From NCBI GenBank assembly GCA_041498295.1, contig JBGQIB010000003.1:2220-66219 (forward strand): DNA of 64,000 bases. The letters are read 5' to 3'. Source of the stretch: a bacterium. GTDB taxonomy: Bacteria > Myxococcota_A > UBA9160 > SZUA-336. The position numbers and the translations under genes are program-made. The notes below the pieces were generated by a model, which saw only the letters and a program-made list of their open reading frames with translations, was not told the DNA's origin and ran no database searches. Shown in pieces: positions 45,674 to 48,600 of the stretch (within the stretch, counting starts at the first letter, position 1; every line of letters begins with the position of its first letter).

Positions 45674-48600
45674 TTAGGCCATCTGGAATTCCGTTGGCAC
45701 ATCCTGGGGAGAATTCGTCAGGGTCCGGAAGTTCGGGGACTGCCCTGGGGGCGCCTTAGACGGGATCGGACACTTGGACCGCGCATAGGCTCGCAATCCA
45801 TAGCCCGCTCCTAGGGATCCCAGCAGGCCTCCGGTTAGGCCAGCCGCAATGTCATAGCGCTCTTCGTCGGTGAGCTGGCGCCCCGAATAGGGATCCTCCC
45901 CGAGCAGTAGTCGCTGGGCTTCTATCGTTAGCTGGTACGAACCGACGCCGACGGCGGCGACCGCGAGCGCCGCACCCTCGGCAGTACCCGAGGCAACCGC
46001 CGCAGAGACTGCGACCGTTGTAGCGGCCCCCACTGCAGCAGAAACAACAAAGCTCTCAGCAGCAGACGACCAAGATTCACCCGAAGGATCCAATAGGTTT
46101 GTCGGATTCCCCCGAGCGTAGGCGTAGAGACCAATCGCCCCGCCGTCCTGTCCGAGAGGGTCGGTCGAGGCAAACGACCCTAGAGCTGGATCAAAGAACC
46201 TCGCCAGGTTGTAGTGGAGGCCGGACTCGCTGTCCGCGTACTGCCCTGGCAACCGCATCGGCAAGCTAGTGACCACTGAATTGGAGTCGGGGTCTTCATC
46301 GACATACGCACGCCCGAAGGCTTCGTAGGTTGCCCGCCAGACAACGGAACCGGTGAAGGTTGTGACGATTCGTGGCGCGTCGAGTCGGTCGTCCTGGAGG
46401 TTCCCGCCAGTTTCGGTAGCAAGGGTCGGGCCCACACGTATGCTTGCGGGAGTCCAGCCTCCCAGATAGGCGTACCGTCGGTCGCGAGTCCCTATCCCGC
46501 CGAACTCGGCAGAGAGCTGGCGACCGTTCCAAAGGAACGACGTTGTGATCCCGGGAACCGTCTTTCGAATTCGTCTGCCGAACGGGTCGTAGGTGTAGGT
46601 CGCGCCAGTACCTCCGGCGGATCGAGCAGAGAGACGGTTGTCCAGATCCCAGGAAAAGCTTGCGATCACGGGCTGATTGGGGTCGCGCACGGCAAGGCTT
46701 CCATCGTCGTCGTAGTCATACGTATGCCCCGGGCTCGCGCGCATGCGGTGATTCGTGTCGTGCGCGTAACCGGTCATCGTTCGGTCTCCCACCCCGTCGT
46801 ACGTGAAGTTCTCCACATCCGGCAGTGAGTCGAGTGGAGGTGGCATTACCGGGTGATCGGCCTGGGTCAGTCGATCGAGCGCGTCGTACTGGTACGTGGT
46901 CTGCCGACTGGCTCCATCCGTCATCGTCGCCACGTTCAGCACGTCCGTGTACGTGTACGTCCACTTCTCGATCAACGGCGTCCCCGCCGGTGGCTTGATC
47001 CGGATCTCACTCACCGGGCCGCGCACGTCGTAGTCGACCTCGCGTCGCACCCCGCCCGGGTAGTCGATCGACTTCACCCCGTCGTGCGGCCAGCGCGCGA
47101 TCACCAGCGCCGTGCTCTCGCCCGGAAACAGCGCCGTCGCGATCCGACCCGAGTCCGCCGCGTACGTGTACACGTGCGCGAGGACCTCGTTCGGCTCGTT
47201 TAACGTGAAGGTCGTGAGATCGCCGTGCGCGTCGTACGCGTAGTCGAGCCTTCGATCTCCCCCGGGGATGTACTTCGCGAAGGTCTTCGTCGTCCGACCG
47301 AGCTTGTCGACTTCGTAGGTGTACAGCGCCCCCCCCTGGATCGAGTCGTCCGTCACCGAGGTGAGATCCCCGGCGCGGTTGCGCACGTACGTGATCGTCT
47401 TCAGCGGAGTCGCGTCACTCGACTTCGCAAAGTGCTTCGCGAGCTGGAGCGGCCCCCAGGTCTCGTACGTGTAGCGGATCTCGGGGTGCTCGGAGCTTCC
47501 CCCCACCGAGCTGCGGGCCAGAATCTTCTTCGCTAGGCGGTCGCGCGGGTCCCACTGGTACTGCACGATCTGACCGAGAGGCTGTGTCACCGCGACCAGA
47601 CGCGAGAGGCCATCGTAGCCGTATGTGGTGGTGCTGTTCTCTGGGTCCTTCACGCTCGTGACGTCGCCTGCCGCGTCGTAGCCGAGCTGAGTCAGGCCGT
47701 TGATGGCATTGGTCTCTTGGACCATGCGGTCGAGCGCGTCGTAGGTCCACTGCGTGATGTGACTCAGCGCGTCGGTGCGCTTGGCGAGGTTGCCGCGCTC
47801 GTCGTACTCAAAGAGGGTCGCCTTGCTGAGCGGATCCTCGATGCGTCTCACGCGGCCGAGCAGGTCGTAGAAGAGCTTCGTGTGGCGCGCGACCAGCGTG
47901 CCTGGGGGGTTCTCGCTGAAGTCCTCGGCCCAGAGCCGGTTCGACTCGGAGTCGTAGCCGAAGCGGCGGAAGAGCGGGTACGCGCCGCAGGTCGTGGCGT
48001 AGTCGGTGCAGCGGTCGACTTCGAGGAGCCGGCCGCGGGGGTCGTAGACGAGCTTCTGGCGCCGACCGTGAACGGTGGTGCTGGCGCCGGTCTCGAGCAG
48101 GGTCAAGAGCTCCCCCGGAGCGGTGCCGTCCGGGCCAGTATAGGTGGCGTTCGTGAGATCGCCGAGCGCGTCCGTGAGCTGCGCGACGCGGCCGAGATCG
48201 TCGCGCAGATACTGCGTCACGGCATCGCCCTGCACGATGTCGACGGGTCGAGTCACCGACGCGACGAAGCCCGACTTGTCGTAGGCGTAGTTCGTCTTCA
48301 TCTCGGCGATCGGCACGCCGCCCGGCTGATGGTGGATCTCGTAGAGACGCCCGTTCTGCGCGATCGCGAGGAAGTCGGCCTGCGTCGTCGGGTTGGCGGG
48401 CGGGACGGTCAGCGTGTAGTACGCAAGCCCGATCTGATGCCCGTCGGGGAGCGTGATCGTCTCGAGCTCGAAGTTCGGGCCGGTGCCGTACGCGAGCTGC
48501 GTGTCGAGATAGTTCGCAGCGTCGACGAAGCGCCGAATGCGGGTGACTGCGGCCGGGGAGCAGCTCGAGTTCCCGCAAGGGCGCAGGAAGTCGTACTCGG

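Follow-up and report, generated by a model that had tools for sequence, protein, structure and literature searches.

A one-base deletion cuts an Rhs open reading frame inside a conserved C-terminal module, a candidate toxin paired with DUF6188 proteins

Why should a large Rhs protein that appears to be exported end in a short hydrophobic tip with no recognizable toxin? The question is raised by a gene in a 64,000-nucleotide stretch of DNA from a bacterium of the Myxococcota_A lineage (GenBank assembly GCA_041498295.1, contig JBGQIB010000003.1, positions 2,220 to 66,219), referred to here as the window. An initial annotation, made from the sequence alone, had described an Rhs protein with only about 130 residues after its core-end motif, among them three hydrophobic Ala/Val/Gly stretches, and had proposed that this tip is a membrane-inserting or pore-forming payload or a membrane anchor. 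We found that the open reading frame (ORF) is brought to its end by a one-base deletion inside a conserved C-terminal module, and we consider it likely that this deletion recently disabled the cargo of a Sec-exported polymorphic toxin locus of the Rhs (YD-shell) type.

An Rhs open reading frame interrupted by a one-base frameshift

The locus comprises the following features, in window coordinates.

45674-50092, minus strand: Rhs/YD-repeat ORF of 1472 amino acids, with a GTG start codon at 50092; the ATG at 50077 (MKTKTS...) is the likelier true start
50000-50077, minus strand: predicted Sec signal peptide
46079-46327, minus strand: Rhs-associated core domain, residues 1256-1338 (TIGR03696, E = 9e-22)
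45740-46075, minus strand: putative helical Ala/Gly-rich pre-toxin linker, tip residues 1-112, with a PT-TG-like part at 45809-45919
45690-45739, minus strand: N-terminal arm of the module, still in the Rhs frame (tblastn, residues 1-18; family consensus PSPKFxPPTNPPQxPP)
45689-45690, minus strand: frameshift site, one base missing
45674-45688, minus strand: out-of-frame tail FQMA and premature TAA stop codon (45674-45676) of the Rhs ORF
45513-45689, minus strand: remainder of the module in the -1 frame, 58 codons and a TAG stop codon (45513-45515)
45143-45502, minus strand: 119-amino-acid candidate cognate immunity protein of the DUF6188 family, with its ATG 10 nucleotides past the module stop codon

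The body of the protein matched RHS_repeat (E = 2e-33, seven stretches) and DUF6531 (E = 4e-17) in Pfam and TIGR01643 (E = 3e-31) in NCBIfam. It has the features of an Rhs polymorphic toxin: RHS/YD repeats, a core domain closing in a DPxG motif, and a variable C-terminal toxin domain followed by an immunity gene, with the toxin frame broken in the window. The motif that closes the core, DPSGE (46076 to 46090), is the expected boundary for autoproteolysis and for the cargo of an Rhs protein, at which cleavage is putative. Much of the initial annotation was borne out here. The Rhs protein does carry a core-end motif, with 133 residues after it in the ORF, and a Sec signal peptide is indeed predicted, by eye from the translation and by a hydropathy maximum of 2.0. 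Searches of Pfam and NCBIfam likewise found no toxin family in the tip, in line with the reported lack of a nuclease, deaminase or ADP-ribosyltransferase motif. No PAAR, VgrG or other type VI secretion system (T6SS) gene was found with Pfam among the 30 large ORFs of the window, as had been stated, and no PAAR, VgrG or EagR domain was found in the Rhs protein itself.

When the 133-residue tip was used to query 5.8 billion proteins, a single homologue was found (P0001), with 77% identity. P0001 runs on beyond the point at which the window ORF stops, for 58 residues more than the window tip, and the same 58 residues are encoded in the -1 frame of the window (45516 to 45689, minus strand), where they are 84% identical to those of P0001. 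A blastn alignment of the window with the contig that encodes P0001 (L147) contained exactly one 1-nucleotide gap in this region, at which the window reads ACGGA-ATTC and L147 reads ACGGAGATTC, so that the A run of GA(A)ATT is shortened. The -1-frame segment begins just upstream of the Rhs stop codon and overlaps it, and its own TAG is followed after 10 nucleotides by the ATG of the next gene. Every full-length relative that we aligned reads through the corresponding motif, IPxGWRVR, in one frame. With the base restored, the Rhs protein would be 1526 amino acids long, with 187 residues of cargo after DPSGE. Thus, the statement that only about 130 residues remain is correct for the ORF as it stands and fails as a description of its natural end.

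The frameshift is reproducible. The exact sequence of the 119-residue downstream protein occurs on seven metagenome contigs, six of which we retrieved (from JGI samples 3300052991 and 3300052987 and SRA runs SRR29604901, SRR29604913, SRR35960035 and SRR35959781, in JGI and Logan assemblies). Each of the six matches the window at 100% identity over 1.6 to 4.7 kb, including the frameshift site, and because six independent contigs are identical across it, a one-off assembly error is unlikely to be the source of the deletion. We found no near-identical locus or intact allele in the genome contig collection, and two exact-pattern scans of the metagenome contig collection gave no match; that collection apparently lacks this population.

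The sequence beyond the deletion also retains the character of a coding region. The 58 codons 3' of the frameshift contain no stop codon, and in comparison with L147, 29 of them are identical, 19 differ only synonymously and 10 differ nonsynonymously; from MPP onward, the corresponding figures are 28, 17 and 4. With no stop codon and mostly synonymous differences from L147, the module therefore appears to have been under purifying selection until recently, and the deletion appears to be young.

A second frameshift, independent of the first but at the same codon position (PPKK|IPSGYRVR), was seen in the module of the Bacteroidetes metagenome-assembled genome CG2_30_33_31 (L028:3270-3300). It sits in an eight-A run, cctcctaaaaaaaattcc, apparently with one base extra, so that its sign is opposite to that of the deletion in the window. 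The L028 site could be a hotspot for mutation or sequencing error, or it could be prone to slippage.

The C-terminal module and its DUF6188 partner

If the tip of the Rhs ORF is the remnant of a longer cargo, what is the part that has been lost? A combined pattern and tblastn scan of species-representative genomes identified 48 loci that carry the module, in Acidobacteriota, Alpha- and Gammaproteobacteria, Bacteroidota, Planctomycetota, Actinomycetota, Myxococcota, Verrucomicrobiota, Leptospira and others. Their copies are 50 to 73% identical to that of the window across phyla, and in all but two of the 48, the distance from YW[RK]xEKP to the stop codon is 35 to 42 residues. When 1.84 billion cluster representatives (50% identity) were searched exhaustively with HMMER, 407 matched at E <= 1e-3, 207 of them at E <= 1e-10, and among the 150 matches listed, nearly all extend to the C terminus of the protein. 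The module thus stands at the end of diverse carriers: of 83 long members, Pfam assigned RHS repeats to 22, DUF6531 to 7 and PT-HINT to 2, with single cases of Tox-PAAR-like, DUF4280, phage portal, LysM and Laminin_G_3 domains. Many further copies are short, 5'-truncated orphan fragments with the immunity gene next to them.

In almost all of the loci that we examined, the gene directly 3' of the module encodes a homologue of the 119-residue protein (phmmer, E = 2.6e-22 to 5e-4), and the pairing holds whatever stands upstream of the module. The window protein itself matched DUF6188 (PF19686) at 23.5 bits (E = 7e-5, profile positions 5 to 106 of 121), below the gathering cutoff of 27.1; its homologues from sister loci matched the same family in 25 of 32 cases, with a best E value of 4e-12. 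Both the position of the module at the C terminus of many carriers and its pairing with a small downstream gene are the standard genomic signature of the C-terminal domain of a polymorphic toxin, so the module is a putative toxin and the DUF6188 protein its putative immunity protein. Members of the immunity family share only 20 to 40% identity, in contrast to the 50 to 73% seen for the modules. They have no signal peptide and no convincing membrane segment (median 19-residue hydropathy maximum, 1.24); the maximum in the window protein, 1.55, falls within a stretch that contains His and Asp.

Base composition is consistent with a swapped cassette of lower G+C content, as the initial annotation had suggested, although its extent was overstated. 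G+C content falls to 0.54-0.57, against about 0.62-0.70 around it, over 45000 to 45750, an interval that takes in the downstream gene and the final part of the tip; the Ala-rich part, which had been included, stands at 0.60 to 0.65.

The module has no counterpart in the collections that we searched. Neither Pfam nor NCBIfam at E <= 10 nor PHROGs gave a match for it, and no toxin family emerged when the tip in its native and repaired forms, the module by itself and P0001 were scanned against these three. The best match of a PDB sequence profile search was to uL24 and nonsignificant (E = 0.46), and Foldseek searches of the PDB with the whole P0001 model or a module-only model gave at best E values of 0.5 to 0.8 and template-modeling scores of 0.33 or less. 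The module was absent from the plasmid and phage collections searched, and literature searches for its motif strings and for DUF6188 found nothing. Structure prediction with AlphaFold2, using 87 to 100 homologues, gave a small, confident domain of three strands and a short helix, with the proline-rich arm packed against them; the predicted local distance difference test score (pLDDT) was 95 to 98 for the module inside P0001 and 93 for a 74-residue module-only protein, with a predicted template-modeling score of 0.78. The residues invariant across the family, Glu-Lys (of LEKP), Gln and Thr-His (of ETH), suggest themselves as candidates for an active site or a binding site. A barnase- or RNase T1-like active site was considered on the strength of the YWRLEKP...ETH pattern; support from the fold was not found, and a nuclease-like activity stays a guess.

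Taken together, these observations lead us to propose the following scheme. The intact cargo of 187 residues would consist of a PT-TG-like helical linker followed by a compact module of about 70 residues, the presumptive toxin, and the 119-residue DUF6188-family protein would serve as the immunity protein of that module, neutralizing it by direct binding. The deletion at 45690/45689 breaks the frame 18 residues into the module and leaves the immunity gene intact, so that the encoded Rhs protein stops after four wrong residues, without the beta-sheet core of the module. The immunity protein lacks both a signal peptide and a convincing membrane segment, from which it can be argued that the module acts in the cytoplasm of the target cell. 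A strongly conserved module opposite a divergent immunity family would in turn point to a universally conserved intracellular target, and our best guess is that the module attacks such a target or binds it tightly. That the module is a previously undescribed mini-toxin, spread across phyla and without a recognizable structural relative, and that DUF6188 is a dedicated immunity family, we hold with less confidence than the account of the locus, rating it at somewhat better than even.

Several relatives showed other arrangements of the module. In Alphaproteobacteria it occurs at the C terminus of a phage portal protein (P0040, 566 amino acids; L026:6426-8171; L031:6423-8174) that matched Phage_portal in Pfam (E = 3e-84) and the portal family in PHROGs (E = 6e-77); this fusion suggests delivery of the module within a phage head or one like that of a gene transfer agent. 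P0013, of 111 amino acids, is a stand-alone module with its own N-terminal signal or membrane helix (MKTIPKILILGLLLVAVVGNVAVG), so that export of the module in the form of a small, bacteriocin-like protein may occur as well.

Other copies have no carrier or a decayed one. A 5'-truncated module and a DUF6188 gene lie directly 3' of ntrX in several Alphaproteobacteria, namely, Stellaceae and relatives (L001:6884-7502; L010 and L051, approximately 7760-8300), as an orphan cassette conserved at one chromosomal position; in L001, it stands in an ntrYX-hfq-hflX housekeeping neighborhood without Rhs or any other carrier. L002:965-9000, like L003 to L007, holds an array of decayed Rhs fragments with several immunity-type genes (Sel1-like, Imm21), including a module fragment followed by a DUF6188 gene split into two ORFs, and looks like a graveyard of toxin and immunity genes. 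In L147 (2-337 and 356-1330), homology to the window begins inside the hydrophobic linker, after another ORF that resembles a group II intron maturase in its C-terminal part (...HLAYYGVPTN...); the tip and immunity gene of L147 are an orphan pair or were split from an rhs gene by a mobile element.

The hydrophobic stretch and the competing explanations

What, then, is the hydrophobic part of the tip? The three Ala/Val/Gly stretches that had been described are present, but only the first reaches transmembrane-like hydropathy, with a Kyte-Doolittle 19-residue maximum of 1.96, against less than 1.6 in the other two. A Gly/Ala-rich hydrophobic stretch (hydropathy of at least 1.6) precedes the module in 28 of 114 relatives. 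The profile search and structure prediction that had been proposed as a check on the tip gave a mixed answer: no toxin family, a weak match to the pre-toxin family PT-TG, and, in the model of P0001, a helical linker ahead of the confident module. PT-TG (PF14449; profile positions 20 to 57 of 68) was the only Pfam signal in the tip, and both the window (15.5 bits, E = 0.017) and P0001 (19 bits, E = 0.0014) scored below the gathering cutoff of 23.5 bits. The matched stretch bears the signature DPY[ST]GxxLTDEER, here DPY[ST]GRxLTDEER, which is DPYTGRRLTDEER in P0001 and has S for T in the window; its position between the repeats and the putative toxin fits, even though the match is subthreshold. 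AlphaFold modeled the linker of P0001 as four helices (pLDDT, 45 to 78). The hydrophobic stretch is therefore best read as a PT-TG-like pre-toxin linker rather than as the payload. Such a linker may help the module to be released or, through a membrane-interacting role, to pass a membrane.

Could the ORF end nevertheless be functional, with a glycine-zipper-like tip as a pore-forming payload or anchor? In its favor, the end at 45674 recurs in six contigs, one stretch has transmembrane-like hydropathy, and about a quarter of relatives have a comparable stretch before the module. Yet the last four residues and the stop codon are not in the frame in which a strongly conserved domain is encoded, and the frame beyond bears the imprint of purifying selection. 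The sole homologue of the hydrophobic region, moreover, continues into the full module, and the neighboring gene product, itself without a convincing membrane segment, pairs with the module and not with hydrophobic linkers. The immunity proteins of pore-forming effectors are usually membrane proteins; here, the conserved unit is a soluble module downstream of the hydrophobic part, and its immunity family shows no membrane embedding by hydropathy. We consider the payload or anchor proposal very improbable, since the end of the ORF was made by a deletion inside the conserved module. A second possibility is that the frame is recoded, by programmed frameshifting or slippage at the A run, or that the module is translated from an internal ATG (MPPTSDYP...). 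This would accommodate a deletion fixed in all six contigs and the frameshift at the same codon position in the A8 run of L028; the Met of RxMPP is also nearly invariant, and gene callers give ORFs of 44 to 49 amino acids starting there. At the window site, however, the A run is only A2 and there is no slippery heptamer (X XXY YYZ), and the great majority of relatives encode the module in one frame. As read from the sequence, the internal ATG has no convincing Shine-Dalgarno sequence, and translation from MPP would yield a protein missing both the proline-rich arm and the first beta-strand of the predicted fold. As for the short ORFs in other genomes, they are orphan remnants, with frames that are often open further upstream. 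Recoding strikes us as the least probable of the alternatives.

The remaining alternative is that the missing base is a sequencing or assembly artifact and that the organism makes an intact 1526-residue Rhs toxin. The frame downstream is intact and conserved, the site is a short homopolymer, and identical contigs could carry one shared systematic error. Against this, the six assemblies, which come from six separate samples or runs and two assembly sources (JGI and Logan), do not differ at a single base, and an A2/A3 run is not usually error prone in short-read data; an artifact is unlikely, if less so than either of the other two alternatives. We thus return to an ordinary, Sec-exported Rhs toxin locus with a recently disabled cargo, against which several points have to be set. 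All of the supporting contigs are identical and may represent one clonal population, and the truncated Rhs protein might retain some activity. The assignment of the module as a toxin is putative and follows from genomic logic; no catalytic fold or motif was recognized in it, and at 70 residues it would be a small enzyme. The match to PT-TG falls below the cutoff, and PT-TG is not among the 25 commonest Pfam families of the 83 long relatives.

Known systems and the surrounding genes

The nearest described relatives are Sec-dependent Rhs/YD-repeat toxins of the WapA type (DUF6531-RHS, with a YD shell as in TcB/TcC), which share with the window locus a signal peptide, DUF6531, RHS repeats, a core ending in DPxG, and a variable C-terminal cargo followed by an immunity gene, with lower G+C content over the cassette. 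Unlike in those systems, the cargo in the window belongs to no described toxin family and is frameshifted, and the PD40 and FlgD-Ig genes beside it (see below) are not common to carriers of the module. Loci of the rhs and cdi types are known to hold orphan toxin/immunity cassettes, and many relatives of the module are just that: 5'-truncated fragments with an immunity gene, some of them in arrays (L002 to L007) or next to genes of mobile elements. The window copy differs from them in being joined to a full-length rhs gene and in that a point indel, not displacement, has disabled it.

The hydrophobic part of the tip invites comparison with membrane-active glycine-zipper effectors (T6SS Tse4 and those of the VasX type), which have Gly/Ala-rich hydrophobic helices in their C-terminal region. 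In the window, by contrast, the hydrophobic part precedes a conserved soluble module, and a neighbor without a convincing membrane segment pairs with that module. The resemblance to PT-TG (PF14449) consists of a helical segment between carrier and toxin and the signature G-x-D-P-x-[ST]-G-x-x-L-x-x-E-R; it is limited by scores of 15.5 and 19 bits against a cutoff of 23.5 and by the lack of a detectable PT-TG in most of the other proteins that carry the module. Undescribed toxins are often found on PT-TG proteins (PMC13483458).

The module itself resembles the PT1-9/PIM (bioRxiv 10.1101/2021.10.19.465003) and W10XG (PMC13483458) toxins in being a short C-terminal domain on many carriers, taxonomically widespread and without a Pfam hit, with a conserved small gene downstream; it differs from them in being unusually conserved, at 50 to 73% across phyla. 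Its motif does not occur in the part of the PT1-9 supplement text available to us or in the literature searched, which is a comparison of motif and text, not of sequences, and as far as the accessible parts of the surveys of short polymorphic toxins and PT-TG proteins go, the module is not visibly among their families.

These results remove a false lead: a hydrophobic Rhs tip that seemed to lack a toxin is most plausibly a toxin gene cut by a frameshift, not a new pore-forming payload. They define a compact and highly conserved candidate toxin module in some 400 protein clusters without annotation, and they would give DUF6188 its first functional context, as an immunity protein. If the module is toxic at about 70 residues, it would count as one of the smallest polymorphic toxin domains and lend itself well to target discovery. 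Culturable carriers exist, namely, Stenotrophomonas tumulicola JCM 30961 (L013) and Sessilibacter sp. strain MAH4 (P0196).

Genes on either side of the locus are as follows.

44467-45099, plus strand: fragment of an IS66-family transposase (DDE_Tnp_IS66, E = 7e-38, profile positions 146-283 of 284 only)
50089-51753, minus strand: three genes upstream of rhs with overlapping stop and start codons, the last of which overlaps the rhs start
51181-51753, minus strand: PD40-repeat protein
50483-51184, minus strand: FlgD-Ig-like protein with a signal peptide
50089-50481, minus strand: 130-amino-acid protein without an assigned family

The rhs gene is probably the last of a four-gene operon with the PD40, FlgD-Ig and 130-amino-acid genes, a set that is not conserved beside other carriers of the module. 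The low-G+C cassette is bordered by the IS66 fragment, which lies directly 3' of the immunity gene. A carbamoyltransferase of housekeeping type encoded in the window has its nearest relatives (75 to 76%) in metagenome-assembled genomes of Myxococcota and "deltaproteobacteria", and the host is probably an uncultured diderm of this sort. Elsewhere in the window (13068 to 18564, plus strand), three genes for DegP/HtrA-type serine proteases (Trypsin_2 plus PDZ; 455, 461 and 491 amino acids) are clustered.

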